A DNA stretch of 64,000 nucleotides from Candidatus Poribacteria bacterium (GCA_965208675.1 OZ242351.1:4320001-4384000), one strand, 5' to 3'. Counted from the first letter of the stretch, positions 46,943-64,000 are shown. Numbers and translations are program-made. Notes: generated by a model from the letters alone, not told the origin.

Positions 46943-47146
46943 CTGAACGTTGGATGAACGTAGTCGCCGTGCCGTGCGCGCCGCCATGCCCAATCTCTCA
47001 CGCCAATTCGCGTTCTTCTCTCAACCCACGATGCGGACAGACGTTCCGGCGAGACAGATTGCATTGGGATATGCGAAACATTTAACATGATATACTTGAT
47101 GGTTCTGTGTTCGATACTGGTATCGAGCCAACGCGAGGTTATTCCG

Positions 47147-48592: not shown

Positions 48593-48656
48593 GTCGGATG
48601 CGGCGAGTAATCTTTTGATTAAATGATGGGATGTGATTAAGCTCTTGTAGGTTTGG

Positions 48657-48687
48657 GATCAACCGAGTGAATAACGAGGGCGATAGT
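48657..48687 (+). repeat. Family-B modular hairpin repeat (1 unit + tail)
   Basis: GATCAA-CCGAGTGAATAACGAGG-GCGATAGT. Confidence 0.85.
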
Positions 48688-49292
48688 TTTTGTAGGTTGG
48701 GTTAAGCGGTGATGACGAAAGGAAGAACATACTCTGCGTGCGTTTCGAAGTTAGAAAGCGTTTGAAATTTTGATAAGATGTAGCGAACCCAACGCTTTTC
48801 GGTAATTGCGAGGTGTTCAGGTCATTGGGCGACGTTCGGAATTACGAAAAGCGTTGGGTTACGCTCTGTGTATCGGGTTTGTACGCGGTTAGGTTTCCGT
48901 AGCGCTATGTAAAATTGTACGTTATTTGGTAATACCCGCTCAACCCAACCTACAAGAAGCTTTATCGCGGCTGGAAGCCGCTCCCACAGTTTTTGTAGGT
49001 TGGGTTAAGCGGTGGTGACGCAAGGAAGAACATACTCTGCGTGCGTTTCGAAGTTAGAAAGCGTTTGAAATTTTGATAAGATGTAGCGAACCCAACGCTT
49101 TTCGGTAATTGCGAGGTGTTCAGGTCATTGGGCGACGTTCGGAATTACGAAAAGCGTTGGGTTACGCTCTGTGTATCGGGTTTGTACGCGGTTAGGTTTC
49201 CGTAGCGCTATGTAAAATTGTACGTTATTTGGTAATACCCGCTCAACCCAACCTACAAGAAGCTTTATCGCGGCTGAAAGCCGCACCCACAG
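48685..49292. repeat. Tandem duplication, 2 x 303 bp, each a family-A REPIN plus a family-C REP
   Basis: Near-identical copies (4 differences seen); outer IR GTAGGTTGGGTT.AGCGG/CCGCT.AACCCAACCTAC, inner IR AACCCAACGCTTTTCG/CGAAAAGCGTTGGGTT. Confidence 0.92.
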
Positions 49293-49299
49293 GGGCGGG

Positions 49300-49375
49300 T
49301 CGCGATTCGGAGATCGCTCCTACAGGATACAGTGTAGGGTTAAAGAAACGGAGTTTTGAAGAAAAATTCCGTTTC
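49300..49375. repeat. Family-C REP followed by family-D hairpin
   Basis: TCGCGATTCGGAGATCGCTCCTAC then GAAACGGAGTTTT..AAAATTCCGTTTC; same arrangement at 54726-54802. Confidence 0.75.
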
Positions 49376-49416
49376 AAGGAAACGCGCCGGTTCGTGTAAG
49401 GTCAAGGTTCTTTTCC

Positions 49417-49445
49417 TTGCGGCGGGGTGGGTATTGTGCTATAAT
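49417..49445 (+). promoter_or_regulatory. smpB promoter (near-leaderless mRNA)
   Basis: TTGCGG-17 bp-TATAAT with extended TGn; GTG start 8 nt downstream. Confidence 0.55.
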
Positions 49446-49453
49446 TTAAGCGG

Positions 49454-49927
49454 GTGAAAAACGTGGCTGCACCAATCAAAATAATCACTGTTAATCGGAA
49501 AGCACGCCACGAGTATCACTTGCAGGATCGGTTTGAAGCGGGGGTTGTGCTTCAGGGCACGGAGGTAAAATCCATCCGCGCCGGCAACTTTAGCCTGACC
49601 GATAGTTACGTGCGGGTTCAAGACGGTGAGACGTTCCTGATTGATGCGCACATTCCCGCTTACACGCACGGAAACCGCGAAAATCACGAACCCAAGCGGG
49701 CGCGCAAGTTGCTGCTGCATCGGCGGGAAATTAAGAAAATCTCGGAAAAGACGAATTCGTCCGGGATGACAATTGTGCCGACCAGGGCCTATTTTAGCGA
49801 CAGTAACGTCAAGGTCGAAATCGCGGTGGCGCGCGGCAAACAAGACTACGACAAGCGCGAAGATATGAAAAAGGATGCGGATAGGCGCGCGATCCAATTA
49901 TACAAACAGCGGTATTCAGCGCGGTAG
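49454..49927 (+). CDS. smpB: SsrA-binding protein
   Basis: NRKARHEY, EAG.VL.GTEVKSIR, RKLLLHRREI, ARGK..YDKRE. Confidence 0.96.
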   Translation: MKNVAAPIKIITVNRKARHEYHLQDRFEAGVVLQGTEVKSIRAGNFSLTDSYVRVQDGETFLIDAHIPAYTHGNRENHEPKRARKLLLHRREIKKISEKTNSSGMTIVPTRAYFSDSNVKVEIAVARGKQDYDKREDMKKDADRRAIQLYKQRYSAR

Positions 49928-49973
49928 CAGTGCAAGAACGGGTTTTGACCGCCGGGTTCTTGCGCACCGATTA

Positions 49974-50326
49974 GGGGGTGAAAAGGTTTCGACGGAAGTA
50001 GATGAGATGAAGGTTGCATGCCGAGGTCTCCGCAGGCCTCGTTAAACAGGCGGAACAAACACAACTGCCGATTACGAAGAATTGGCTCTAGCCGCTTAAA
50101 GCGGCTACGTTCGGTTTGCTTGCGGCCCGTCGGGTTAACCGGGCGTCGAGATACGGGCTGTGCGATTTGCTTTTTCTTCAGGGGCAACCCGCGAGATTTA
50201 CTGGGGATAGCTAATGCGAATCCGGCATAAGGGAGCCGCTGCGGTGAAGCATTAAAACTTATGCTAAGCATGTAGTAGCCTTTGTTGAAATGCCTCCGGA
50301 CGCGGGTTCGATTCCCGCCACCTCCA
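49974..50326 (+). ncRNA. ssrA: tmRNA; tag (A)ADYEELALAA encoded at 50067-50099
   Basis: 5' GGGGGTGAAAAGGTTTCGAC; T-arm GCGGGTTCGATTCCCGC; acceptor CACCTCCA with G.U pair; directly downstream of smpB; CCA not encoded. Confidence 0.95.
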
Positions 50327-50666
50327 TCACGTTATTTGGTTCGCTAGTTTGGTTGAAGCACAATCATCATGCGCCGCGCGTGATTACACGCGTTGCGGCT
50401 TGTGCCGTGCCCATTTTTAAGCGCAGTAACAGGATTTAGGTCTAACACTCCTTTTTGGCGTATGATTTACTATATCCATACCGAAAAGGAGGATGCAAGC
50501 CGCGGTTATTTTATGAAAATCGAAAACGATTAGGATTTGCGTTCTCATTTAGCTCACTCGTTCTTTGATAGGCTTGGCAACTGTGCAGCCTAGTTTTGGA
50601 TTTACCATCTGAAAGATTGTTGTGCGTGAATTAGGAAACAACAGTTTCTTGATTAAATGCTGGAGC

Positions 50667-53144
50667 ATGACGGGTGCGGCAATCAAGAGTGCAATTGCGC
50701 TGGCCTTGATCGTCTGCACGATCGGGAGGGTATCCGTTGCCCGCGATCCGGTCGACATACCGGTCGTCACCTTCGATACTGTGGTCGTGACAGCAACCCG
50801 CGTCGGGGAGCCGCTGCAGCAAGTGCCGCTTAGCATCTCGGCGGTGACCGGTGCAGACCTTGAGCAGCGCGCAATCGGGAACCTCACGGAGTTGGCGCGC
50901 TGGATGCCCGGTTTCACCGTGGTCGACCAGGGTGCGCGCGGCAGCAACGCCGTCATTGCCCGCGGACTCAACACGGATTCGTTGAGCGGATCGGAGTTCA
51001 ATGGCAACAACTACAACAATAGCGTCGCCACATATCTCGGGGACATCCCCCTAGCGGTTGACCTGCGGCTGTACGACATTGAGCGGGTCGAAGTGCTACT
51101 CGGACCGCAAGGGACACTGTACGGCGCCGGCACGCTAGCGGGAGCGGTTCGCTACCTGCCGCGCCGGCCCGACACTGGGCGGCGCACGTTCGAGGGACGC
51201 GGCGACCTGTTCGCCCTAGCGCACGGCGGCGTGCCCGGTTCGGATGCCGGTGTCACGTTCAACCTGCCGCTGGTTTCGCGCAAGTTAGCACTACGCGGCT
51301 CGATCGACTACTACGTCGACCCCGGGTTCATAGACTACGACTATCTGCTGCGCACGCCAGGCGTTTCCGAGCCGGAGCCGGACGTGAGCGACCCCTCCAC
51401 GGTGGAGGCAAACCTGCGCAGCGAGCCGGACGCCAACACCGAGGAGACGGTTTCGTCGCGTCTCTCGTTGCTGTGGGAGGCGACCGCGGAGCTGTCGGCT
51501 CTTTTCACCTACCATCTACAGGATCAGCGGGTCGGCGCGCGCCAGATCAACCATGTCAAGTCGTTCGACACCGGCCGCTACGCCGCGGCGCATCGCTACC
51601 TTGAGCCAAACGATCGCAAGAACCAGTTATGGAGCCTGGAACTGACCTGGACGCCGGATTGGGCGGAGTTGACCACCGCCGTCGGCTACTCCCGTTTTAC
51701 GGCGGAGGGTCAGCGCGACCAAACCGACCTGCTGATCCAAGCCTTCGGCATCAAGGGGCTGCTGCCGGCGGAGTTCCCGGCGTTAGCGCAAGCTCAGGCG
51801 TTGGATCCGAACGTCTCCGCCGCCGACCTGACGGCGCAGTTCCGGTCTTTCTCGGCTTACACGCATGAAGACTCCTGGGAGGAGCGTTTCAACTGGGAGA
51901 CGCGGCTAGTCTCGACGGGCGATGGACCGTGGCGCTGGGTCGGCGGCGTCTTTTTCAACAACTACGACAGTAGCGGGACGAGCTTCGAATTCACACCCGG
52001 TCTGACGGAATTTTCGGGCATCACGCCCGTCCGGGGAGGTGTGCCGGTATCCGAGCCGGTCGAGTATTACAGCGTCGACAGCCAGTCAGTAGACGAACGC
52101 GCCCTGTTCGGGGAAATCTCCCGCGGCCTGGGTGACCACTGGCACGTGACGGTCGGCGGCCGCTGGTTTGGCTACCTCATCGACACCGGCAGCCTGACCG
52201 AGTTTCCCTATACGCCGCTGTACAATTCGCCGTTCACCGCCTTCGAGTCCGACGACCGGGGCGTGCTGCTCAAGGCAAGCGCCAGCCACCGTTTCGATGA
52301 CCAGACGAGCGCCTACTTTACCCGTTCGGAAGGCTACCGCATCGGCGGCGGCAACAACTTCCGAATCTGCACGGACGAGGAGATTGCGCTGCTCAGCGAC
52401 GCGGATCCCGGCAACGACCCGCCGCAATCCGGCTGTATCTACGAGGACCAGGCTCTGATTAAGCCCGACAGGACGACCAACTACGAGGTGGGCTTGCGCC
52501 GCTCGTGGAGCAACAGGCGTTTCCTTGCCAGCGGTTCGTTGTTCCACGTGGACTGGACGGACATTCAAGTCGCGGGTGAGACGCCTTTCAGCGCGCAGCC
52601 GATCATTCTGAACGGCGCCGCGGCTATAAGCCGCGGCGTGGAGGTCTCCGGCGCCGCCGGGCTGTCGAGTGCGCTGCACCTGCGCGGGACTTGGTCGTAC
52701 ACGCACGCGGAGCTGAGTCAGGACTCGCCAGGTCTGCTTGATGCCGGCGCGGACACCTTCAAAGGCGACCGCCTGCCGGGCGCGCCGCGGCAGCAAGGCA
52801 GCCTGCTTGCGTCCTACGGCGTGCGGCTCGGCGGCAGAACTACGCTGGACCTGCTGTACGGCTACACCTACGTTGGCGACGTGTTTACACGAATCGGCTT
52901 GCGCGCGGGCGGCGAAGTGCTGCCGGCATACGACCTCCACAACTTCTCGGCGGCAGTCTTGATGGACGGCTGGGCGCTTACGTTCTACGCCGAAAACTTG
53001 TTCGACAAGTACGCCGTAACCGGCGTGCGCCAGACGCCTGATCAGATTGGTACCACGGAGGACGGTTTCCGTGCACGCCGCTACTTCGCCAACGTGCTCA
53101 CCCCGCGGCGAGTGGGTGCGCGCATCCGCTACACGTTTCAGTAA
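50667..53144 (+). CDS. TonB-dependent receptor
   Basis: TonB box DTVVVTA, plug motifs (VPLSISAV, IERVEVLLGPQGTLYG), NYEVG, NLFD, terminal RYTFQ; start 50622 or 50667. Confidence 0.92.
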   Translation: MTGAAIKSAIALALIVCTIGRVSVARDPVDIPVVTFDTVVVTATRVGEPLQQVPLSISAVTGADLEQRAIGNLTELARWMPGFTVVDQGARGSNAVIARGLNTDSLSGSEFNGNNYNNSVATYLGDIPLAVDLRLYDIERVEVLLGPQGTLYGAGTLAGAVRYLPRRPDTGRRTFEGRGDLFALAHGGVPGSDAGVTFNLPLVSRKLALRGSIDYYVDPGFIDYDYLLRTPGVSEPEPDVSDPSTVEANLRSEPDANTEETVSSRLSLLWEATAELSALFTYHLQDQRVGARQINHVKSFDTGRYAAAHRYLEPNDRKNQLWSLELTWTPDWAELTTAVGYSRFTAEGQRDQTDLLIQAFGIKGLLPAEFPALAQAQALDPNVSAADLTAQFRSFSAYTHEDSWEERFNWETRLVSTGDGPWRWVGGVFFNNYDSSGTSFEFTPGLTEFSGITPVRGGVPVSEPVEYYSVDSQSVDERALFGEISRGLGDHWHVTVGGRWFGYLIDTGSLTEFPYTPLYNSPFTAFESDDRGVLLKASASHRFDDQTSAYFTRSEGYRIGGGNNFRICTDEEIALLSDADPGNDPPQSGCIYEDQALIKPDRTTNYEVGLRRSWSNRRFLASGSLFHVDWTDIQVAGETPFSAQPIILNGAAAISRGVEVSGAAGLSSALHLRGTWSYTHAELSQDSPGLLDAGADTFKGDRLPGAPRQQGSLLASYGVRLGGRTTLDLLYGYTYVGDVFTRIGLRAGGEVLPAYDLHNFSAAVLMDGWALTFYAENLFDKYAVTGVRQTPDQIGTTEDGFRARRYFANVLTPRRVGARIRYTFQ

Positions 53145-53153
53145 ATCTTGGGC

Positions 53154-53272
53154 GATCAACAGAGTGAATAACGAGGGATCAAGCGACTGAATAGGGAGCG
53201 CGATAGTCCTCTCCTATCTTGTCTTCTTCAGCTTGCCGGAATAATGTGTCGCGATTTGAAGATTGTTCCTAC
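53154..53272 (+). repeat. Family-B array (2 units + tail) followed by linker and degenerate family-C REP
   Basis: GATCAACAGAGTGAATAACGAGG GATCAAGCGACTGAATAGGGAGC GCGATAGT; downstream TGTCTTCTTCAG.TTGCCG.AATA shared with about 54697-54720. Confidence 0.85.
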
Positions 53273-53305
53273 CGTGTTTTGGATGTTTCATTGAGTTAAG
53301 GAGTT

Positions 53306-53701
53306 TTGGGCAAGATGGCTGAGTTTCAACGCTTGCCATCTCGAATTCGTGATACGGTCACGTCGCAACTGGGCGCAAATGAGCAGATCGAATTATGCTT
53401 TCTCGGTAGATCCAATTTCCTAAGCCCAGATTTTGTTATCATCACTTCACATCGGTTGCTGGTGCTGGAAGAACGCAGTATGGGGAGCTTGGGTGCATCC
53501 TACACCAACATTCGGTGCAACCTTCTGTTTTCTGAAATTTCGGCGGTAAAGCTGAGCCGCGATTGGAAACACCGCCTGTTACGCCAAGCCTGCGTCGAAA
53601 TTGATAAACGTAATAGCGATAGATATCTCATCAATCGCGTGAGTCTGCGTGAAGCCAAGCTGGCGCTTGAATTGATTTCCACACAGATTCAGCCGGGTTG
53701 A
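53306..53701 (+). CDS. Bacterial PH-domain-like hypothetical protein
   Basis: L..NEQI...IITSHRLLV...SEI..V pattern; AAGGAG RBS. Confidence 0.55.
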   Translation: MGKMAEFQRLPSRIRDTVTSQLGANEQIELCFLGRSNFLSPDFVIITSHRLLVLEERSMGSLGASYTNIRCNLLFSEISAVKLSRDWKHRLLRQACVEIDKRNSDRYLINRVSLREAKLALELISTQIQPG

Positions 53702-53759
53702 GAATGGGGCTGATTGCCGCCCGAGATGCGCACTGCATTTCAAGTCTGAGATATTAATC

Positions 53760-54428
53760 ATGTTGGAATTTCTCGTTGAACTCACCCGTTGGTATAACCT
53801 GTTTTTCGTCCTACCCGTCCTCGTCGCGCTCATTTATCTATTCTTGCACACAATGACAGCGTCGGACATCGGCGGTTTAGAAGCAGGATTCGGGGATTTG
53901 AGCGTCATAGCGGCAGATCGGCTGCCCGCGGCGCAAGAACGCACTGTATTGGTTCGCTTCTTCACGTTTCTGAATGCGGGCCGTCTCCCTCCATTAATGG
54001 TTGTTGCGCCCTTTTTTCTTTGCTGGGGATTTATCGGGTTTGTATGTAATCACTGGTTCGTCCCGTTGTTCGAGGGCATGATATTGCTAGCCGTACTGGT
54101 TTCAGCCTTGACGGCATTCGTCCTCAGCAGCCTGGTTACGCGGTTGTTGTCGCAAGTCATCGCCTACGTATTCCCGACCGCTCTAGCGGATGAAATTCAG
54201 CGAGCCGACTTGGTGGGAACGGTTGCGACGGTGACGAGCATTGACGTGAATGCGGATTTTGGTATGGCGCGCACGGAAGACGTTCCGTTCAATGTGACGA
54301 TATTCTGCCGGATTGACGAAGGGGAGGCGCGCATTAAACAGGGCCAGCGAGTCGTATTGTGGGATTATGACCCGCAGATGAATTGCTATAAGGTGCAGGA
54401 ATTTAACGAGGATCAACCGACCGAATAG
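53760..54428 (+). CDS. YqiJ/NfeD-like membrane protein with C-terminal OB fold
   Basis: TM segments, GRLPP, LVG.VATV, I.QG.RVV..DY; stop codon lies inside a family-B unit. Confidence 0.65.
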   Translation: MLEFLVELTRWYNLFFVLPVLVALIYLFLHTMTASDIGGLEAGFGDLSVIAADRLPAAQERTVLVRFFTFLNAGRLPPLMVVAPFFLCWGFIGFVCNHWFVPLFEGMILLAVLVSALTAFVLSSLVTRLLSQVIAYVFPTALADEIQRADLVGTVATVTSIDVNADFGMARTEDVPFNVTIFCRIDEGEARIKQGQRVVLWDYDPQMNCYKVQEFNEDQPTE

Positions 54429-54464
54429 GGAGGGATCAACTGAGCGAACAGCGAAGGCGATAGT
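54411..54464 (+). repeat. Family-B array (2 units + tail)
   Basis: GATCAACCGACCGAATAGGGAGG GATCAACTGAGCGAACAGCGAAG GCGATAGT. Confidence 0.85.
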
Positions 54465-54479
54465 CTTTCTTGGTTTTCT

Positions 54480-54686
54480 CTAGGGCGTGTTGACATTTGG
54501 CATCCCGTAGGTTGAATTGAACGGTTAAACGGCAGTCTTTATCAAGTACAAAGGAATCTTTTGTAACACAATCTGTTAGATTGTGATCCGAGCCCGCAAA
54601 CTAACAGTTTGCGCTACTTATATCAGATTATCCAATGGTGACAACGTTTGCCGAATCAGTAGCCTCAAAATGTCAACAGAACCTAG
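54480..54686. mobile_element. MITE of about 200 bp (IS5-like ends) containing an internal REP doublet
   Basis: Terminal IRs CTAGG-GCG-TGTTGACATTT / AAATGTCAACA-GAA-CCTAG; absent from the homologous repeat cluster at 53200-53272. Confidence 0.7.
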
Positions 54687-54898
54687 TTTATAGGCCTGTC
54701 TTCTTCAGTTTGCCGAAATATTATGTCGCGATTCGCAGATCGCTCCTACGGGATACAGTGCTGTGTTAAAGAAACGGCTCATTCAAGAAAAAAATCGGTT
54801 TCAAATACTGAAATACCTCTTGCCTTGTGCATAGTAAAAGGCTTATAATACAGAGCGCATTATTGGTGGACATATTAAAATAACATGGAGGAGCAACC

Positions 54899-55405
54899 AT
54901 GGTAGAGGTAGAAGTTGCACTCATTACTGTTGATACGAGAGTAAATATGCCGATAGTTCTTCTGAAAGAGAAGGAAGGCAGTCCGAAGCGGGTATTGCCC
55001 ATCTGGATTGGACAGGCGGAAGCAACGGCGATCCAATTAAAACTGAAGAACGCGCCCAGTACCCCCCGCCCAATGACGCACGATTTGATGAAGAACCTCA
55101 TTGAAAGCCTTGATGCTCAGGTTGATTCCATTTTTGTTCATTCAGTGATTGCATCGGAGGGCGAAGGCGGCACATACTTGGGCCAGATTAACCTTGAGGT
55201 GGATGGTAAGAAAATCGAGGTTGATTCCCGTCCAAGCGACGCAATCGCACTCGCATTAAGGCTCGAAGCGCCCATTCATGTTGCGGAAAAGATTTTGGAC
55301 GAGAACGGATTTTCCGAAGACGAAATAAAAGAGTCGGGCAAGGAAGCCGCGAAGAACACCCTGGAGAACTTGGACGAGGACGCATTGGGGCGATACAGTG
55401 TGTAG
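54899..55405 (+). CDS. Bifunctional nuclease family protein (DUF151)
   Basis: LPIWIG..EA.AI, RPMTHDL, DSRPSDAIALA. Confidence 0.93.
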   Translation: MVEVEVALITVDTRVNMPIVLLKEKEGSPKRVLPIWIGQAEATAIQLKLKNAPSTPRPMTHDLMKNLIESLDAQVDSIFVHSVIASEGEGGTYLGQINLEVDGKKIEVDSRPSDAIALALRLEAPIHVAEKILDENGFSEDEIKESGKEAAKNTLENLDEDALGRYSV

Positions 55406-55565
55406 TCGTTGCGTTTGGTAAACGGAATCGCTGGAATTTTACGCGTTAATCGAATTAATCAGTTACGTATCATGCAGCTATTCAACCTCTGGTATGGTTT
55501 GAGGTTAGCCGCCGCCGTGTCGTGCGCCGACGGCAAATATATGTAAAACCCCTATTTTTGGCAAG

Positions 55566-55763
55566 GTGGAAAATCCGATGAAAGTCCTCAGAAATGTCGC
55601 ACTATTAGCGTTAATTTTGGTACTTGTCTATATTGCGCTAGAAATAATTACGACGTTTGTCTTCCCGTTAATCACTTGGGTCATTAACATCGTTATTACG
55701 CTGGTGCTGCTCGTCGCGATTGGCGTTGCGCTTGTTTACCTATACCGAAAGCTTAAGGCGTAG
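55566..55763 (+). CDS. Small membrane protein
   Basis: Two hydrophobic helices, basic C-terminus, followed by a terminator. Confidence 0.55.
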   Translation: MENPMKVLRNVALLALILVLVYIALEIITTFVFPLITWVINIVITLVLLVAIGVALVYLYRKLKA

Positions 55764-55846
55764 CGGGTAGTTGGATAAGTACGGGTTCGGAAGCCGAACC
55801 TGCCGGGATGAAAAAAAATATTTTCGGTTGGGATTTGCGGATATTG

Positions 55847-55884
55847 AGCCGAGGGAGCGCGGTTTTCTCTACTCGGCTTTTTTT
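55847..55884 (+). terminator. Intrinsic terminator
   Basis: AGCCGAG...CTCGGCT plus T-tract. Confidence 0.65.
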
Positions 55885-55911
55885 GTTGGAGTTTTGGAGT
55901 AAACGGCGCAT

Positions 55912-55946
55912 AAAGTAATAGGCACACGGCGTGTGCCTATTACTTT
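55912..55946. repeat. Perfect 35-bp palindrome (REP-like)
   Basis: AAAGTAATAGGCACACG-G-CGTGTGCCTATTACTTT. Confidence 0.75.
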
Positions 55947-56094
55947 GATTTTTTGTTTGATTCTCGAATGATAATCTGTTACAATCGTGGTGTTTGCGAA
56001 TTGGATTCTCGAACATCTAATTGATTTTCTACGGATAATTATGCGCGTACACGATAAATTTTCCGTCCTACCAGCCGATGAAGGGAGGCAGTAA

Positions 56095-56526
56095 ATGGAC
56101 GCACGAACGCTGTCGTCACCCATTCATACGCTGAATCTGAATGAACCTTGCTATGTGGACCTCGGCACTCCTGTACTGGAGGTAATCAACCTCATGCAGA
56201 AGGGTCAATTTGGGTGTGCGCTGGTCATAGATAGCCGCGACCGACTTGTCGGCATCGTCACCGAGCGTGATTTTCTTGTCAAAATCATGGGAGTGCAGAT
56301 TGATCCGGAGGATGTGATTGTCGATGAGATTATGACGCCGTCGCCGGAGTGTTTGCGTCCGACCGATACCGTTGCATTTGCTTTGAACCTCATGCAGTTG
56401 GGGCACTACCGTAATATTCCTTTAGTGATACGCGATGAGATAGACAGATATCCTGTAGGTGTAGTCTCGATTAAGGACATCCTGAATCATTTTGCCGCAT
56501 TTTTGGAGACGGGTAAGGAGGAATAA
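56095..56526 (+). CDS. CBS domain protein
   Basis: LVGIVTERD, IMTPSP, YRNIPLV, PVGVVS.KD. Confidence 0.88.
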   Translation: MDARTLSSPIHTLNLNEPCYVDLGTPVLEVINLMQKGQFGCALVIDSRDRLVGIVTERDFLVKIMGVQIDPEDVIVDEIMTPSPECLRPTDTVAFALNLMQLGHYRNIPLVIRDEIDRYPVGVVSIKDILNHFAAFLETGKEE

Positions 56527-56529
56527 AAT

Positions 56530-57069
56530 ATGCTTTACGAAGAAATGGTTGACGAAGAGCTGGCGATTATGGATGAAGAGCCCGAGGAACCCTCAAAAAC
56601 CCGGAGCCAACCTGACATTCAGGCGCCGCTTCGTTCTCTGATGCGTGTACCGGTTACAATTGAAATGGGGGCAAGTGTACAGGAGGCAGTCAATCTGATG
56701 ATTGAGAATCGGGTCGGCGCTATCCTCGTCGTATCCGATGGCGTGCTCAAGGGCATTTTCGGTGAGCGCGATGTGCTTTTGAAAATATTGAACAAGCCGG
56801 TGGGCGATATCTCGGAGATTCCGGTCGAAAATTTTATGAAAGTCGATCCACATACGGCGCGGGTTGAGGATTCGCTTGGCGCGGCGATATTGCATATGGC
56901 GCAGGGCGGATTCCGCCATATCCCGGTCGTAAATGAGCTGAATCAACCCGTTGGGATGGTTTCGACTCGCCATGTTGTCTCCAACATCATTGATCATTAT
57001 CCGCAAGAGGTGTTGACGCTGCCGCGCGAACCGGTTCGGAAGGCGATGCAGGCGCGCGAAGGGGCGTAG
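56530..57069 (+). CDS. CBS domain protein
   Basis: GIFGERD, GGFRHIPVV, PVGMVS. Confidence 0.88.
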   Translation: MLYEEMVDEELAIMDEEPEEPSKTRSQPDIQAPLRSLMRVPVTIEMGASVQEAVNLMIENRVGAILVVSDGVLKGIFGERDVLLKILNKPVGDISEIPVENFMKVDPHTARVEDSLGAAILHMAQGGFRHIPVVNELNQPVGMVSTRHVVSNIIDHYPQEVLTLPREPVRKAMQAREGA

Positions 57070-57100
57070 TGTGGAGGATATATGTGAGGGGTGTGCCAAT

Positions 57101-57205
57101 GTTGAAGAAACCGAGTTTTGAAGAAAAAACTCGGTTTTAAATGAGGGTCGAGATACGGCGCCTACACCCCCTCCGCCCGTAGGCGCGGCATCTTGCCGCG
57201 CGTAT
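57101..57205. repeat. Family-D hairpin and GTAG-type REP
   Basis: AAACCGAGTTTT..AAAACTCGGTTT; GTAGGCGCGGCATCTTGCCGCGC. Confidence 0.65.
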
Positions 57206-57336
57206 TTCCGAGGTGTGGCGAGATAGCGCGGGTACGTTGAAATTTAGATGAAACTGATGCTTGGTAATATACGTGTTAATCATGGAATCCATATACGCAG
57301 ATTGCGGTTGAATGAACAGAGAGAAGGACACATGTA

Positions 57337-59175
57337 ATGAGAAAGGACGTGCAATCTATTGAGTCGGCTACGCTCCTGTTCGCCGGTGACTCCGGCGATG
57401 GCTCGCAGACGATTGGCACGCAAATGACAGAAGCGTCGGCGATTGCAGGGAACGATGTAGCGACGCTTCCGGACTACCCTGCGGAGATACGCGCACCTGC
57501 CGGTTCGCTAGCCGGCGTATCCGGATTCCAACTGCACTTCTCCAGCGAAACCATCCACACCCCCGGCGATACGTGCGATGTTTTGGTCGCAATGAATCCT
57601 GCGGCGTTGAGAGTTAATCTCGATAAGCTCAAGCCCAACGGCATTCTGATTGTCAACACGGACAATTTTGCAGCGCGGAATCTCAAGCTGGCTGGATACA
57701 CCGACAACCCCTTAGAGGACGGGTCGCTGGTAAAATACCAAATTTTTCCTGTGCCGTTAACGCGATTAACACGAGATTCGCTTAAAGGCACAAGCCTTAT
57801 GCAAAGAGAGGCTGACCGGTGCAAGAATTTTTTTGCGCTCGGAATGGTGTGCTGGCTGTACAACCGGCCGATGGATAACACCGTCAAGTTCATCAGAGAG
57901 AAGTACCGCAGTAAACCGCAGTATGTTGAAGCCAATACGATTGCATTGAAGGCGGGAAACGTCTATTGTGAAGCGACCGAGCAGTTCGCGACCTCTTATG
58001 AGGTCAAGCCGGCGCATTTTGAGCCGGGTACGTACCGCAATATTGAAGGCAACATGGCGGCAGCCTTTGGGCTGATTGCCGCCGCGCAACAGTCGGGGCT
58101 GCCGCTTGTATACGGGAGTTACCCCATTACGCCTGCGAGCTCGATACTCCACGAACTCGCGAAATATAAGAACTTTGGCGTTATCACGATGCAGATGGAA
58201 GACGAAATCGCAGCCATTGGCGCTGCGATTGGTGCGGCGTTTAGCGGCGCATTGGGTGCGACCGGCAGCAGCGGGCCCGGGCTTGCGCTCAAGTCGGAGT
58301 CGATTAACCTAGCGGTGATGGCGGAGTTGCCGCTGGTCATCTGCAACATCCAGCGGTCGGGCCCTTCGACGGGTATGCCGACGAAGACGGAACAGACGGA
58401 TTTGCTCCAGATGTTTTACGGACGCAACGGCGAGTCGCCCGTACCGATTATTGCGGCGTCGCGCCCGGCGGATTGCTTTGAAACCATCTATGAAGCCGCT
58501 CGAATCGCCGTTAAATACATGACGCCCGTGATTTTCATGTCCGAGCTTTATATCGCCTTCGGCGCCGAGCCGTGGCGTATCCCGAAGGTTTCGGATTTGC
58601 CGTCGATCAAGGTAAATTACGAAACCACCGCCGACGGGTTTCAGCCGTACATGCGCGACGAAAAGACGCTTGCCCGCCCCTGGGCTATCCCCGGCACGCC
58701 CGGTTTGGAACATCGGATTGGCGGCTTGGAAAAGGCGGACATTTCCGGAAACGTGAGTTATGACCCCGAGAACCATGAGCAAATGTCGCTGCTCAGGGCG
58801 GAAAAGGTGGCTCGAATTGCGGATGACATCCCGCCGACCGAGATATTTGGCGAACCAGAGGGCGAACTACTTGTATTGGCGTGGGGCGGAACCTACGGCG
58901 CGGTTAGAACCGCGGTCGAACACAAGCTAGGAGAGGGCGCGTCGGTGTCGCACGTGCACCTGCGTTATCTCAATCCGCTGCCGAGCGATCTCGGCGGTAT
59001 TCTCAAGCAGTTTGACAAGGTGCTTATACCCGAACTGAATTTCGGGCAACTGCTCAAACTGATTCGTGCGGAATTTTTGATAGACGCGGTTGGATTGAAT
59101 AAAGTGCAAGGCTTGCCGTTCTATGTTTTTGAGGTTGAAACTAAAATCGATGAGTTGCTAAGGGGCGATGCATGA
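57337..59175 (+). CDS. korA: 2-oxoacid:ferredoxin oxidoreductase alpha subunit
   Basis: FAGDSGDG, PAEIRAPAG, YPITPAS, EDEIAA, SGPG, GPSTGMPTK. Confidence 0.93.
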   Translation: MRKDVQSIESATLLFAGDSGDGSQTIGTQMTEASAIAGNDVATLPDYPAEIRAPAGSLAGVSGFQLHFSSETIHTPGDTCDVLVAMNPAALRVNLDKLKPNGILIVNTDNFAARNLKLAGYTDNPLEDGSLVKYQIFPVPLTRLTRDSLKGTSLMQREADRCKNFFALGMVCWLYNRPMDNTVKFIREKYRSKPQYVEANTIALKAGNVYCEATEQFATSYEVKPAHFEPGTYRNIEGNMAAAFGLIAAAQQSGLPLVYGSYPITPASSILHELAKYKNFGVITMQMEDEIAAIGAAIGAAFSGALGATGSSGPGLALKSESINLAVMAELPLVICNIQRSGPSTGMPTKTEQTDLLQMFYGRNGESPVPIIAASRPADCFETIYEAARIAVKYMTPVIFMSELYIAFGAEPWRIPKVSDLPSIKVNYETTADGFQPYMRDEKTLARPWAIPGTPGLEHRIGGLEKADISGNVSYDPENHEQMSLLRAEKVARIADDIPPTEIFGEPEGELLVLAWGGTYGAVRTAVEHKLGEGASVSHVHLRYLNPLPSDLGGILKQFDKVLIPELNFGQLLKLIRAEFLIDAVGLNKVQGLPFYVFEVETKIDELLRGDA

Positions 59176-60218
59176 GAAAGCGTACTTCCACTGAGATACC
59201 GGTAGCGGTGCCCACGTTAACCAAAAAGAATTTTGAATCGGATCAGGACGTCCGGTGGTGCCCGGGTTGCGGAGATTATTCGATACTGTCTCAAACGCAG
59301 CGAATTCTCCCGGATCTCGGCGTCCCGAAGGAGGATTTTGTTTTCATCTCCGGGATTGGCTGTTCGAGCCGGTTTCCGTATTACATGAACGCGTACGGTT
59401 TTCATACGATTCACGGTCGCGCGCCGACGGTTGCGGCTGGCGTAAAAGTCGCCCACCCGGAACTTTCGGTATGGGTGATTACGGGCGACGGCGATGCGCT
59501 GTCGATTGGCGGCAACCACTTTATCCACCTGATGCGGCGCAATTTCGACATCAACGTGCTGTTGTTCAACAACCAAATTTATGGGTTGACGAAGGGGCAG
59601 TATTCGCCCACGTCGGAACAGGGTAAAAAGACCTTCTCCACGCCGATGGGGTCGCTTGATAACCCGTTCAATCCGATCAGCCTCGCATTGGCATCGGGCG
59701 CGACATTTGTTGCCCGTTCGCTGGATAGGGACCCGGAACATCTACGGGGCGTCATCAAGGCGGCGTTTGAACACAAGGGCACGTCGTTTGTGGAGATTTA
59801 CCAGAACTGCAATGTTTATAACGACGGCGCGTTTTTCTCCTTTACGGAAAAGGAGACAAAAGCCGAGAACACGGTGTTTTTGGAACATGGAGAGCCGCTT
59901 GTTTTTGGCAAGGACCGCGACAAGGGTATCCGCCTGAACGAGTTTCAACCGGAGGTTTTTTCACTCACCGAGGGCAACTATTCGCCCGATGAACTCATCA
60001 AACACAACCAGTACGCCGAGAATCCAACGCTTGCGTACTTCCTTGCGCGGATGAGCGTGATACCGGATTTGCCGCATCCGATTGGCGTGTTTCGGAGCAT
60101 CCAGCACGCCTGCTATGAAGATTTGATGGCACAGCAGGTTGAGACGGCGAAGCGGCAGCGCGGCGAAGGCGATCTTGAGGCGCTGCTCAACGAAGCCGAT
60201 ACCTGGCGCGTTGAATAG
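59172..60218 (+). CDS. korB: 2-oxoacid:ferredoxin oxidoreductase beta subunit
   Basis: WCPGCGD, SGIGCSS, HGRAP, GDGD...NN TPP motif; ATGA overlap with the alpha gene. Confidence 0.93.
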   Translation: MRKRTSTEIPVAVPTLTKKNFESDQDVRWCPGCGDYSILSQTQRILPDLGVPKEDFVFISGIGCSSRFPYYMNAYGFHTIHGRAPTVAAGVKVAHPELSVWVITGDGDALSIGGNHFIHLMRRNFDINVLLFNNQIYGLTKGQYSPTSEQGKKTFSTPMGSLDNPFNPISLALASGATFVARSLDRDPEHLRGVIKAAFEHKGTSFVEIYQNCNVYNDGAFFSFTEKETKAENTVFLEHGEPLVFGKDRDKGIRLNEFQPEVFSLTEGNYSPDELIKHNQYAENPTLAYFLARMSVIPDLPHPIGVFRSIQHACYEDLMAQQVETAKRQRGEGDLEALLNEADTWRVE

Positions 60219-60315
60219 GACGCGGCACGGAACCGCACCGTATTCATTTGCCCTCAAGATACACACATGACTGCGCGGGCCATTTGCTCCCACCCTGAAC
60301 CGGTAAATTGTCAAT

Positions 60316-61371
60316 TTGCACATCAAACCATCCCAGATTCTCATTCCAATCCTCATCATAGTCATAGCGCTGCTCATTAACGCCCTCATCATGCTCGCGT
60401 GCGGTTACCAACCGGCGGCGGCATTTGCCGCGCTGTTTCAGGGGGCGTTGGGCGGACCGAAACAGGTCACAGAGACGTTTGTCAAAACGTGCCCGTTGCT
60501 GCTGACCGGGTTAGCGGTTGCGTTTGCGTTTCGGTGCGGCGTGTGGAACATTGGCGCCGAGGGGCAGTACCTTGCCGCCGCCTTGGTTGCGACGTGGATT
60601 GGGACATCGATTACATACCTGCCGTCAATTTTGCTGATTCCGCTGGTGCTGGCTGCAGGGTTTGCCGCGGGCGGGTTTTGGGCTGCGATTGCCGGGATAC
60701 TCAAGGCGTACCGCGGCGTCGGCGAAGTGATTAGCACCATCATGCTCAATTTCATTGCCATCCAACTGGTTAGCTATTCCGTTGACGGCGGGCCGCTGCA
60801 GGAGGCGTCGAAATCGTACCAGTGGAGCGATCGGATTGTCTCTAACGCGCTGCTGCCGCATCTCCTGCCGAAATCTTTGATTCCCGGCAACCGCTTCCAT
60901 TTGGGCATTCTGATCGCGTTAATGTCCGCATTGTGCTTGTATGTCGTGCTGTTTCAGACTTCGCTGGGTTATCAGATTCGTGCGGTCGGGAAAAACCAAG
61001 TCGCGGCGCGGGCGGCGGGGATTCAGGTTTCCAAGAATATTATCATTGCGATGTTGATTAGCGGCGGGCTGGCGGGGTTGGCGGGCGCCATTGAGTTGAC
61101 GGGGTTAAGCCCGCATCGGCTCGACCAGAGCGCTCCGGGTTACGGTTATACGGCAATCGCCGTGGCGTTGCTTGGGCGTTTGCACCCGATTGGGGTGGTT
61201 TTTTCGGCGCTGCTTTTTGGGGTTTTGCAAGCCGGGTCGGAGACGATGAAGTTGGAGGCGCAGGTTCCCACAAAATTGACGTGGGTGATTCAAGCCACGG
61301 TGTTGCTGCTGGTGTTGGGGGTTAGTATTTATGAGGCGAGGCGGGAGAAGATGAGGCGTTCAACCGAGTGA
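60316..61371 (+). CDS. Nucleoside/sugar ABC transporter permease (NupB/YufP-like)
   Basis: NIGAEGQ, EVISTIMLNFIA, G...RAVG.N..AA..AGI. Confidence 0.88.
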   Translation: MHIKPSQILIPILIIVIALLINALIMLACGYQPAAAFAALFQGALGGPKQVTETFVKTCPLLLTGLAVAFAFRCGVWNIGAEGQYLAAALVATWIGTSITYLPSILLIPLVLAAGFAAGGFWAAIAGILKAYRGVGEVISTIMLNFIAIQLVSYSVDGGPLQEASKSYQWSDRIVSNALLPHLLPKSLIPGNRFHLGILIALMSALCLYVVLFQTSLGYQIRAVGKNQVAARAAGIQVSKNIIIAMLISGGLAGLAGAIELTGLSPHRLDQSAPGYGYTAIAVALLGRLHPIGVVFSALLFGVLQAGSETMKLEAQVPTKLTWVIQATVLLLVLGVSIYEARREKMRRSTE

Positions 61372-61682
61372 ATAGCGAGGGATCAACCGACCGAATAGGG
61401 AGGGCGATAGTCTTCTCCTTTCCGGCCTATTCTAATCTTCTCCCAAACCCAGCGATTGTGTAGTATCGAGGCTAGGAAGCCTCTGCTACAGGTGGAGGTT
61501 GTGGTTAGGACGGCAGTAACCGCCCTCAGTCCCCCCTTGGTAAGAGTGAGGTTGAGGACTCCTAATTCCCCCCCTTACCAAGGGGGGGTTAGATCCTGGG
61601 CGTATTGAGGTTTGGGAGTTTCTGTCACGGTTGTTTACCGGAGTGTGCCTACTACTTTATCGCGGCTGGAAGCCGCTCCCAC
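61358..61682. repeat. Mosaic repeat cluster between two permease genes
   Basis: Family-B array 61358-61411; family-C REPs 61465-61490 and 61659-61682; CCCCCCTTACCAAGGGGGG palindrome near 61570-61588. Confidence 0.8.
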
Positions 61683-61700
61683 GAGCGGTAGGGGATTGGT

Positions 61701-62636
61701 ATGGTTCAAGATATTTTTGAGGCGACTGTGCGGCAGGCGACGCCGCTGCTGATTGTGGCGCTCGGCGAGGTTATTGTTCAGCGGTCGGGTGTCATCAATA
61801 TCGGGCTTGAAGGCATCATGATTTTCAGCGCATTTATCGGGTGGCTGGGTTCTTACGCCATTCAGAGCGCATCGCCGGAACTTGCGCCGTGGGCGGGTAT
61901 TCTGTTCGGCGGCGCCAGCGGCTTGCTGCTCGCCGCGTTTTTCGGTTTTTTCGCGCTGCGCTTGAAAACCGATCAGATTGTGACCGGCACCGGCATTAAC
62001 CTGTTGGCGTTCGGACTGGTGGAGGTGCTGTACCGCCGCATCTTCGGCGCGACCGGCAGGTCGCTCAAGGTGCCTATTTTTGAGCCGCTGCATATCCCGC
62101 TGTTGTCGGACATACCGTTTCTGGGCGGCATCTTGTTTCAGCACAATATTCTCGTCTACGGCGCTTTTCTGGCGGTGCCTGCGGCTTACTTTTACCTGTT
62201 TCACACCTATCCCGGATTGTCGATTCAGGCGTGCGGCGAACACCCGATGGCAGCGGATGCCGCCGGTGTCAGCGTGCCCGGGCTGCAAGCGAAATGTGTG
62301 CTATTTGGCGGGTTTATGGCGGGGATTGCCGGCGGTTACCTCTCGCTGGTCGACGTGCCGTACTTCAGCCCGGAGATGACCGCCGGGCGCGGCTTTATCG
62401 CGCTTGCAATCGTGGTGTTCGGCAAGTGGCACCCAGTCAAGGCTTGCGGCGCGGCGCTCTTGTTTAGCCTGTGCAACGCCGTGCTGAATCGGTTTCAGGC
62501 AATACCCGATCTCGGTTTTATCCCCTACCAGTTTTTCCTTATGCTGCCCTACATCTTGACGCTTCTGGTGCTCACGGGGTTTGTCGGGCAGGCGAGACAG
62601 CCAGCCGCGTTAGCCGTACCCTATGAACGGGAATAG
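61701..62636 (+). CDS. Nucleoside/sugar ABC transporter permease (NupC/YufQ-like)
   Basis: ATPLL..ALGE...RSGVINIGLEG, GEHP.AADAAG, GRGFIALA..FGKW.P, MLPY. Confidence 0.9.
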   Translation: MVQDIFEATVRQATPLLIVALGEVIVQRSGVINIGLEGIMIFSAFIGWLGSYAIQSASPELAPWAGILFGGASGLLLAAFFGFFALRLKTDQIVTGTGINLLAFGLVEVLYRRIFGATGRSLKVPIFEPLHIPLLSDIPFLGGILFQHNILVYGAFLAVPAAYFYLFHTYPGLSIQACGEHPMAADAAGVSVPGLQAKCVLFGGFMAGIAGGYLSLVDVPYFSPEMTAGRGFIALAIVVFGKWHPVKACGAALLFSLCNAVLNRFQAIPDLGFIPYQFFLMLPYILTLLVLTGFVGQARQPAALAVPYERE

Positions 62637-62683
62637 CGTCGCCCCGCATACTGCGCTTGCATACGCTCCGCCCGGATTCCATT

Positions 62684-63724
62684 TTACAACGGCAGGTCGA
62701 CCGATCTGCCCTGTTCAGCCGACAGGTAACAGGCTTGCATGAGTTCAGTCAGGTTGCGTCCATCCTGTATGGTGATAGTGGTGGGTTCGCCGTGCAGGAT
62801 GGCGTTAAACCACTGCTGCATCGGCGGGGGCGGCGGCGGCGGGCTGCAGGCGGCGTATTCCGCTTTTTCTTCGTCGGACAGGTTGCGCGTCTCGAAGTGG
62901 ATATTCTCTTGACCGACGGCGATGGAGTGAAGCGTTTCGAAGTGTTTATCGCCGTAACCGCTGACGATGGCGCCGTCGGTGCCGTAGAGTTCGAGCATGT
63001 TGGGCCCGTGCCGGTGCACCCAAGATACATCAACGACGCCGAGCGCACTGTTCTCAAATTCAATCACGGACGCGCTGTTGTCGTCGATGGGGTAGGTGCC
63101 ACGGTGGTTGTTAATCTTTGCGATAACGCTCTTGGGCGTGCCCATCAGCCACGGGACAACGTCCATTCGGTGGCAGCCGAGGTCAAACAGCGCACCGCCG
63201 CCGGCTCGTTTTGCGTCCGCGAACCAGATACTGGTGTCTCTGAGCCATCCATCGACCGCGGCGGGATGTGCGATACGTCCTCTGCCGAAGGTTAAATCGC
63301 CCAGCAGCCCGTCATTGACGGCTCTTTTGGCGAATAGGAGGCCGGCGTTGCAACGCGATGGCAGCGAAATCATGAATTTGACGCCCGCCTTTTCGACGGC
63401 GGCGATAATCTCGTCGCATTCGTCGACCGTGATTGCCAAGGCTTTTTCGGTGAAGATGTGTTTGCCAGCCTCCGCCGCGGCAATCATGACGCGCGGATGT
63501 TCCGATGTCGGCGCGTTGACGACGACGGCATCCACGTCGTCCAACTCGAGGATGGCGTCGAGGTCGGCGTAAAAGGGTGCGTTAAAGTCGCTCGCAGCTT
63601 CACGCCCGCCGTATTCCTCCTCGTCCCACACCGCAACGATTTGGGCGTCCGGGTTGTTTTGAACATCGTTAGCGTATCCTCTGGCGTGCGTGTGGGCGAA
63701 ACTCAACATTGCGACGTTGACCAT
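62684..63724 (-). CDS. Gfo/Idh/MocA family oxidoreductase
   Basis: AGKHIFTEK, GGGALFDLGCH; GGAGG RBS. Confidence 0.9.
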   Translation of the reverse strand: MVNVAMLSFAHTHARGYANDVQNNPDAQIVAVWDEEEYGGREAASDFNAPFYADLDAILELDDVDAVVVNAPTSEHPRVMIAAAEAGKHIFTEKALAITVDECDEIIAAVEKAGVKFMISLPSRCNAGLLFAKRAVNDGLLGDLTFGRGRIAHPAAVDGWLRDTSIWFADAKRAGGGALFDLGCHRMDVVPWLMGTPKSVIAKINNHRGTYPIDDNSASVIEFENSALGVVDVSWVHRHGPNMLELYGTDGAIVSGYGDKHFETLHSIAVGQENIHFETRNLSDEEKAEYAACSPPPPPPPMQQWFNAILHGEPTTITIQDGRNLTELMQACYLSAEQGRSVDLPL

Positions 63725-63753
63725 GATTGTGCCTCCTAGTTTTTGTAGTTTTT

Positions 63754-64000
63754 GTAGGTTGGGTTAAGCGGTGTAAATGAGAGGCGCGAAAAATGTCGAA
63801 TGGATATCGGTATTCGAATATGTGCGGTAATTGTTAAAGGGTAGCGAACCCAACGATCAACCGACCGAATAGGATCAACCGAGTGAATAACGAGGGCGAT
63901 AGTTTTCAACTACGATAGTCTTGTTTTAATTGCGAGGCGTTCAGGTCACCGCGCGACGTTCGTAAATACGAAAAGCGTTGGGATCAACTGAGCGAACAGC
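63754..64000. repeat. Family-A REPIN interrupted twice by family-B arrays (runs off the window)
   Basis: Colinear with 48692-48858 except for B insertions at 63855-63919 and 63982-64000. Confidence 0.85.

Follow-up and report, generated by a model that had tools for sequence, protein, structure and literature searches.

Repeat arrays in the analysed window

The DNA analysed here (the window) comprises 64,000 nucleotides of a sponge-symbiont-type Candidatus Poribacteria genome (GCA_965208675.1, OZ242351.1:4320001-4384000; genome G000) and is part of a single 4.89-Mb contig with 49 % G+C. Between positions 48657 and 64000 it harbours six arrays of a very small repeat, termed here the G.A element, which consists of one to three 23-nt units, each composed of GATCAA and a hairpin of 17 nt (tandem G.A between two 2-bp stems, GAAYA loop), followed by a single tail with the consensus GCGATAGTCTTC. 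The arrays had been described in an original prediction made by a model from the sequence alone; direct reading of the sequence bore out their number and recovered all 17-mers listed there, as well as the A.G mismatch at 53161, within unit 53154-53176. The strict pattern GATCAA-NN-GA-NN-GAAYA-NN-GA-NN matches seven times in the window, every time on the + strand, and not once in 100 shuffled sequences. GCGATAGT, the proposed shared end of the five complete arrays, was found directly behind them at 48680, 53200, 54457, 61404 and 63896, a sixth window match at 42356 representing unrelated background.

All six arrays lie on the + strand. A single-unit element (48657..48687) is composed of the unit GATCAA-CC-GA-GT-GAATA-AC-GA-GG (48657-48679) and the tail GCGATAGT, and is flanked on both sides by GTAGGTTGGGT-type repeat heads. 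Two-unit arrays are located at 53154..53211 (units 53154-53176 and 53177-53199, tail GCGATAGTCCTC), starting 10 nt past the TAA stop of a TonB-receptor-like open reading frame (ORF; 50622..53144), at 54411..54468 (units 54411-54433 and 54434-54456, tail GCGATAGTCTTT) and at 61358..61415 (units 61358-61380 and 61381-61403, tail GCGATAGTCTTC). A nested or composite copy (63855..63922), situated immediately behind the ACCCAAC arm of its host repeat, comprises, in this order, a unit truncated to 18 nt (63855-63872), which ends in GAATAG, one full unit (63873-63895), the tail GCGATAGT (63896-63903), TTTCAACTA and a second tail remnant CGATAGTCTT (63913-63922). Of the last array (63982..64000), which is cut by the window edge as predicted, 19 nt of the unit lie inside the window; in the genome it reads on to the full unit GATCAA-CT-GA-GC-GAACA-GC-GA-GG and GCGATAGT. 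The hexamer GATCAA, predicted for every unit, is replaced by GTTCAA in the degenerate first unit at 61358.

Two of these arrays provide the 3' end of a gene. The YqiJ_N-like ORF 53760..54428 (+) receives its C-terminus, i.e. the last five codons, and its TAG stop (54426-54428) from unit 54411-54433, and the branched-chain amino-acid permease ORF 60316..61371 (+; BPD_transp_2) has its last codons and its TGA stop (61369-61371) inside unit 61358-61380. The orthologues of both ORFs in the congener G002 end differently, that of the former extending nine codons further. Arrays of the G.A element thus rewrite gene 3' ends and stop codons.

Unit arrangement across the genome

Genome-wide, the strict pattern was found 169 times, 98 times on the + and 71 times on the - strand; the claim that all arrays lie on the + strand therefore holds for the window and fails for the genome. 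All four stem pairs are formed in 144 of these 169 units, three in 18, two in 5 and one in 2. A relaxed census allowing up to two mismatches at fixed positions yielded 330 units, which are grouped into 279 arrays (232 single, 43 double, 4 triple), and the commonest unit type is present in 37 exact copies. Neighbouring units follow each other at an interval of 23 nt in 47 of 51 cases. None of these 51 pairs shares the same stem type (3.3 expected), which agrees with the predicted mixing of unit types within arrays and argues against slippage as array origin.

GCGATAG follows 212 of the 279 arrays. Since GCGATAGT without a unit is about as frequent as chance according to our own arithmetic estimate, the tail is to be regarded as part of the element and not as a free target; GCGATAG alone is mostly background. 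A model of one tail per inserted element was rejected, because double arrays mostly carry one tail instead of two. Alignment of the array flanks revealed no conservation before GATCAA or past the tail, and the 5' flanks are varied (CCCAAC 34, TAGAGC 15, GAATAG 14, and others; n = 279). Short T/C-rich words ending TAG or CAG often trail the tail (TAGTCTTTCC, TAGTCTTCTCC, TTTTCCTATAG and others; e.g., window 61404-61440 and G000 4386815-4386860) and form a second layer of modular repeats of 8-16 nt. The tetranucleotide GATC occurs 12026 times in the genome versus about 25200 expected from trimers (ratio 0.48), the ratios of other 4-bp palindromes ranging from 0.86 to 0.99.

Structure and covariation of the hairpin

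For covariation analysis, the 7 window units were aligned with 71 distinct units from loci of other genomes, chosen on fixed positions only. Standard pairs occupy 89.4 % of the cells versus 58.3 % in shuffles, none of 500 shuffles reaching as high a value, and both sides are changed in 124 cells versus 34 in shuffles. Several Watson-Crick types occur at each of the four stem pairs, all of which covary; in a control with partners slid by 1-3 columns, pairing amounted to 22-52 %. Thirteen columns are invariant across the 78 units, both GA dinucleotides among them. The hairpin, predicted to covary around a tandem G.A, is hence maintained by compensatory change.

Wobble pairs indicate the strand to which the fold belongs. 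G.T and A.C occur in a ratio of 51:10 in the strict units of G000 and of 85:14 at the loci of the other metagenome-assembled genomes (MAGs), and as G.T is about five times commoner than A.C, the fold belongs to the G.A strand. In agreement with the predicted strand specificity, folding with RNA parameters returned the proposed hairpin as the minimum-energy structure of each 17-mer (-2.0 to -4.9 kcal/mol), and a weak fold or none for the complement strands. In a 66-nt context, RNA folding joins the 5' GATC of one unit to that of the unit behind it, and ATC is able to pair with GAT of the tail; these positions never vary and hence provide no covariation signal either way.

Tandem sheared G.A motifs and GCGAAGC-type mini-hairpins occur in DNA and RNA. 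The present hairpin has in common with them the 5'-GA/GA-3' step between Watson-Crick pairs, mostly in the favourable Y-GA-R context, and a loop closed by G...A, whereas they are structural motifs and not genomic elements. The invariant tandem G.A core shows that the recognised structure is no plain duplex palindrome, a kind of repeat missed by palindrome-based repeat finders.

Distribution among Poribacteria

A search of the relatives, as suggested in the original prediction, detected the pattern together with the tail in 20 of the phylum's 176 genomes. Counts are high only in the genus of the window (g1; 4 of 4 genomes with 103-123 matches each) and in the genus g11, which belongs to another family (145-494 matches in 10 of 10 genomes); beyond these, one genome has 10 matches, five genomes have 1-2 and 156 have none. 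The reversed pattern, serving as control, had no match throughout the 176 genomes. A pattern scan of public collections retrieved at least 139 stretches, and the 80 matches listed are all titled Candidatus Poribacteria MAGs and stem from several assemblies. Viral contigs contained no pattern match, and blastn of an array against plasmids gave two chance-level matches and nothing meaningful. The element also matched no Rfam family, the array region 54380-54490 being without a match at E <= 10. On 47000-64000 (E <= 1), the sole Rfam match was a full-length tmRNA gene (49974-50329, RF00023, 184 bits), which is directly preceded by smpB (ORF 49454..49927, PF01668). Literature searches revealed no paper on such repeats in Poribacteria among the papers listed.

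That the arrays stem from an adapter or an assembly error, or that the pattern arose by chance, can be given next to no credence. Short-read contigs of public runs do break within arrays, as an artefact would have it. This reading is, however, refuted by the controls and by independent assemblies: shuffled sequences and the reversed pattern gave no matches, hundreds of copies are present in 14 genomes, the 80 listed matches derive from several assemblies, and a contig of 97.5 % identity that originates from a different sponge metagenome (X6, another study) covers 57113-61409, thereby spanning the array at 61358 over 61358-61409. Contigs of the run best matching the stretch likewise pass the array junctions without differences. 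Joints between arrays in assembled contigs resemble graph joins through a repeat and were left out of the evidence. In practical terms, the arrays break short-read assemblies of sponge symbionts. In a further part of the window (57000-57140), between a CBS-domain gene and oxidoreductase genes, a summed contig depth that is very high and numerous loose ends at about 57104-57137 (4 of 4 runs) indicate another highly repeated short element.

Empty sites, turnover and nesting

Filled and empty alleles were compared between G000 and its congener G002 across about 29 kb of syntenic sequence (about 3.5 kb of G002 not included), in which genes are 86-95 % identical (about 93 %). G000 has 11 arrays in this region and G002 has 3, with 2 sites in common (2 of 11 of G000). 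The arrays at 54411 and 61358 are missing from G002, and the site at 63855 is empty there (CCCGAC adjoining GTTTTTGAG), G000 having 68 inserted bases that end in CGATAGTCTT. At the orthologous site of 53154, two units in G000 correspond to one unit of a different type in G002, at the same point 10 nt past the stop. The difference at G000 4387750 is exactly 23 nt, namely one CT-GC-type unit 5' of a shared CC-CC-type unit and its tail. Whole 23-nt units and whole elements are thus present or absent at precise points, and the element behaves as an insertion. It turns over fast, and array change is fast enough for use as strain markers. A segment of about 790 nt at G000 4388850-4390050 (L201 4849-6044) is missing from G002 and partly duplicated within G000, its two copies differing in their arrays (two full units versus one 16-nt truncated unit).

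Host repeats within G000 occur both filled and empty, and different unit types are found at one position of one host family, e.g. after GATAAGG, CGTAGGG, ACCCAAC or GGTAGAGC. Units are also nested within other units, straight after the loop GAATAG, which is the 5' flank of 14 arrays. The commonest host is a repeat with CTTGTAGGTTGGGTTAAGCGG arms, its flanks CCCAAC, TAGAGC, TTGAGC and TTAAGC preceding 65 of the 279 arrays. Larger copies of this repeat are located at 48690-49200 and 63740-63990 of the window; with arms CTTGTAGGTTGGGTTAAGCGG ... [quoted passage not shown] Target-site duplications were not found, the counts equalling the permuted control at every offset. With regard to targeting to the foot of existing hairpins, only a modest excess was observed, the insertion point coinciding with the end of a stem of 7 bp or more in 31.5 % of the arrays versus 19.6 % of random intergenic points.

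Such exchanges could also arise without a dedicated enzyme during replication, either through template switching at microhomologies or through gene conversion, with hairpins stalling the polymerase and the GATCAA and GCGATAG flanks serving as microhomology. Short host segments replaced in filled/empty pairs, different unit types at one orthologous or paralogous site, junctions that have a few bases in common with the ends of units (GAGGAT at 54411, GAGTGA at 61366), a 5' flank consensus resembling the unit 3' end and the lack of target duplication are all in line with this explanation. We nevertheless consider it improbable, because repeated ectopic copying at some 280 scattered loci would have to rely on a flanking homology of 6-8 nt, which is very short, because the two-genus limit and the abrupt absence from sister genera whose repeat load is similar fit a specific factor better, and because the strictness of the G.A core and loop (13 invariant columns in 78 units) implies recognition.

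Position and orientation relative to genes

Gene positions were taken from our own crude model of ORFs and codon scores (3608 genes). Of the 279 arrays, 260 lie between genes, whereas the other 19 extend over ORF ends. Arrays are not enriched within 100 nt of gene 3' ends (26 % versus 30 % of random intergenic points) and are depleted within 100 nt of gene starts (15 % versus 33 %). With respect to orientation, arrays near gene 3' ends are predominantly sense (40 sense and 4 antisense within 40 nt, 66:11 within 100 nt), the sense:antisense counts near 5' ends being 6:13 (within 40 nt) and 16:24 (within 100 nt). A strict gene set, restricted to well-scored genes of at least 150 aa and leaving out arrays that overlap an ORF, retains the bias at 1-100 nt past stops (39 sense versus 10 antisense, p = 4e-5), with 16:13 before starts. 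The comparison with transcription direction that had been proposed to accompany the prediction therefore reveals a sense bias behind genes. Furthermore, 14 of 15 arrays overlapping ORF stops are in sense orientation, and tandem gene contexts overall contain 125 sense and 60 antisense arrays. The GC skew of the genome is weak and tracks gene strand, so that origin and terminus are not set by skew.

This bias brings up a function at the RNA level, in which the G.A hairpin in mRNA 3' ends binds a protein or blocks exonucleases, and the element spreads through its usefulness or via an RNA intermediate. An RNA intermediate was reportedly proposed for the small dispersed repeats (SDRs) of cyanobacteria. 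Of the readings considered, this one explains the orientation best: the sense bias is found behind genes (40:4 within 40 nt, 39:10 in the strict set) and not before starts, arrays overlapping stops are nearly all in sense, the hairpin is the minimum-energy RNA fold on the sense strand only, and G.T is tolerated where A.C is not. As a full account of the element it is still unlikely in our view. Sites are poorly conserved (2 of 11 common to a congener with genes about 93 % identical), antisense copies in tandem contexts are numerous (60 versus 125), many copies reside inside other repeats, and the hairpin is weak (-2 to -4.9 kcal/mol) and has no Rfam match. No reverse transcriptase was linked to the element, though none was specifically looked for, and no RNA data set is among the runs listed as containing the stretch.

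Proposed mechanism and search for an enzyme partner

Tentatively, we favour the reading that the G.A element is a lineage-specific family of very small, non-autonomous, strand-specific repeat elements, which are cut and rejoined as single-stranded DNA (ssDNA) by a trans-acting HUH-type enzyme. This enzyme, for which a small Y1 HUH transposase is deemed the likeliest type, would read one strand, recognise the G.A hairpin together with its fixed flanks, and cut and rejoin ssDNA beside the hairpin in a geometry as at an IS200/IS605 end. The 5' ATC of GATCAA would pair with GAT in the tail or in the unit that follows, like a guide with a cleavage site, and cutting and rejoining would add, remove or swap units without duplication. 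Selection would then filter the copies: those near gene starts would be lost, and those just behind genes would survive mainly in sense, transcribed as a hairpin of the 3' untranslated region (3'-UTR) and able to donate stop codons. Such a mechanism would explain the one-strand structure, the lack of duplication, the in-phase stacking by existing hairpins and the insertion into other hairpin repeats. Doubtful at present is the narrower proposal of a 23-nt tandem-sheared-G.A cassette that is written, erased and swapped at ssDNA sites by a small Y1 HUH enzyme, with subclass 1.2, for which a DNA partner is not known to have been published, as candidate, and of which the host keeps sense copies as 3'-UTR hairpins or stop donors. 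If true, the Y1-written 23-nt cassette would be the smallest transposition unit known.

Several observations weigh against an HUH-type mechanism. Host segments are replaced: in several filled/empty pairs the element stands in place of 5-12 host bases instead of being cleanly inserted, which is not expected under classical peel-and-paste. The orientation bias follows transcription and not demonstrably replication, whereas a mechanism on lagging-strand ssDNA predicts a link to replication. The mechanism leaves both features unexplained, selection being invoked instead, and the crude gene model behind the orientation counts adds to this reservation. For the 23-nt difference at 4387750, no outgroup was found that would polarise it as gain or loss, the locus being rearranged in the more distant congeners G001 and G003. 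Folding of arrays with DNA nearest-neighbour parameters produced no stable fold and nothing better than shuffles. The DNA folding parameters may not credit tandem G.A pairs with their claimed stability, and this negative result is therefore not decisive.

The search for the enzyme itself adds to these objections, since no enzyme, and none of the partners suggested in the original prediction (HUH/Y1 nuclease, reverse transcriptase or RNA-binding protein), could be tied to the G.A element from the Y1 neighbourhoods and inter-array ORFs. PF01797 (Y1 transposase) does not discriminate, as it has matches in 36 of 41 relatives and the majority of these are without the element. G000 contains four Y1-like matches, three of which lie in called genes. 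A transposase gene flanked by the motif, which the original prediction suggested looking for, was not encountered at these three, which carry other REP (repetitive extragenic palindrome) families; the fourth match (190577-190780) has no called ORF, and its flanks lie outside the comparison. At 17 Y1 loci of three g11 genomes (G029, G032, G038), an enrichment of units was rejected, as 5 strict units with tail in about 61 kb equal the genome average; degenerate units are many near these loci. Inverted neighbouring array pairs 200-3500 nt apart number 17 and enclose 21 ORFs. No nuclease or transposase was detected among the 19 ORFs scanned, which are ordinary (e.g., acetyl-CoA synthetase, lectin-like proteins, ParE/HTH, SOD), the two ORFs outside that scan measuring 64 and 76 aa.

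One Y1 gene outside the window (G000 2029831..2030331, 166 aa) displays the motifs DHIH, WQ and YIKNQEEHH and, judged by these, appears subclass-1.2-like; subclass 1.2 motifs are given in the survey table of PMC6006769, where the subclass is listed without REPs. The gene is bracketed by inverted copies of a repeat, REP-P (consensus CCAAAGCCCCAGCGGGGCGACAGGT; copies at the Y1 gene read CCAAAGCCCCAGCGGGGCGA[CT]AGGT), in G000 and in three g11 genomes. REP-P and the G.A element have the layout CAA(A)-hairpin-CGAYAG in common, an exact GCGATAG is present in the copy of REP-P that lies upstream of the Y1 gene in G000, and the downstream REP-P in g11 holds an old inserted copy of the G.A element. On the other hand, REP-P occurs in 99 of 176 phylum genomes and is, by strict pattern, missing from the element-bearing G001 and G003, and the congeners G002 and G003 have no strong subclass-1.2-type match despite about 100 elements each. 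The connection of REP-P and the subclass-1.2-like Y1 gene to the G.A element is consequently a lead and not a link, given the mismatched REP-P distribution, the two congeners without such a match and a unit density that is not raised near Y1 genes. Two further Y1/RAYT-like genes outside the window (3522614..3523105 and 2071473..2072174) each have their own REP, of TGTGGGAGAGGCATCCCTGCCTC type and GTAGTAGGCACACGGAGTGTGCC type, respectively; the GTAGTAGGCACACGGAGTGTGCC-type REP is also present in the window near 61640-61680, as CTACTTTATCGCGGCTGGAAGCCGCTCCC neighbours.

Comparison with known systems

The original prediction had set the element apart from CRISPR and from classic GTAG REPs, and both distinctions stand. 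The units abut (23-nt spacing in 47 of 51 pairs), number at most three per array and have no spacers, and the consensus GATCAA-hairpin-GCGATAGTCTTC is without GTAG, its stem containing G.A mismatches. With REP, BIME and REPIN sequences and their RAYT (TnpA-REP) Y1 transposases, as portrayed in PMC3116915 and PMC6006769, the G.A element shares the format of a short intergenic repeat that is abundant, has a fixed motif next to its hairpin and forms mosaics with other motifs, as well as a host genome encoding Y1 HUH genes as presumed mobilisers in trans. Both are lineage-specific, the G.A element being abundant in two genera only and 260 of its 279 arrays being intergenic. Unlike REPs, it has no GTAG head, and its hairpin, which forms on a single strand, differs from a Watson-Crick palindrome; it brackets none of the three Y1 genes called in G000, and its g11 copy sits in the REP downstream of the Y1 gene without raised density. 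Nor does it form inverted doublets (17 opposite-strand pairs only), and its unit has half the usual REP length.

The right end of IS200/IS605 elements such as IS608 combines a guide tetranucleotide, a subterminal hairpin and a cleavage site. The G.A element would resemble such an end in one-strand recognition, as far as this can be deduced from the fold, in an ATC 5' of the hairpin that is pairable with a GAT 3' of it, and in lacking target duplication. It differs in having only 35 nt, without an inner transposase gene or a separate left end.

On our best reading, the closest published kind are SDR1-8 of Nostoc punctiforme and relatives, and the G.A element is akin to SDRs and REPs but a member of neither. 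The hairpins of SDR4-6 are reportedly kept by compensatory changes, as are all four stem pairs here. The designation as a new class is not upheld, because the SDR elements of Nostocaceae (Elhai 2008) are, in the published passages on them, very small hairpin repeats found nested in other repeats as well as in their own copies. SDRs reportedly measure 21-27 nt (23 nt for the present unit), occur as dispersed intergenic copies, reside inside other short repeats, mini-transposons and their own copies, and have no known enzyme; precise insertion beside a fixed short motif is a further likeness, SDR5 being inserted precisely within HIP1 (passage citing Elhai 2008). SDRs are reported there as confined to Nostocaceae (passages citing Elhai 2008, Genome Res 18:1484), in contrast to the present element of Poribacteria, whose genome has no HIP1 link, HIP1 (GCGATCGC) not being enriched (81 copies); the comparison with SDRs drawn here is one of description. 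Further features separating the G.A element from SDRs are the invariant tandem G.A, the phased mixed arrays with one tail and the sense bias behind genes. If its 23-nt units move as such, they are near the lower size limit for mobile DNA, and an enzyme that is guided by a hairpin and inserts a defined cassette of 23 nt would make an interesting tool. Poribacteria would then be a second, unrelated bacterial lineage after Nostocaceae, making the mechanism, open since 2008, a general question.

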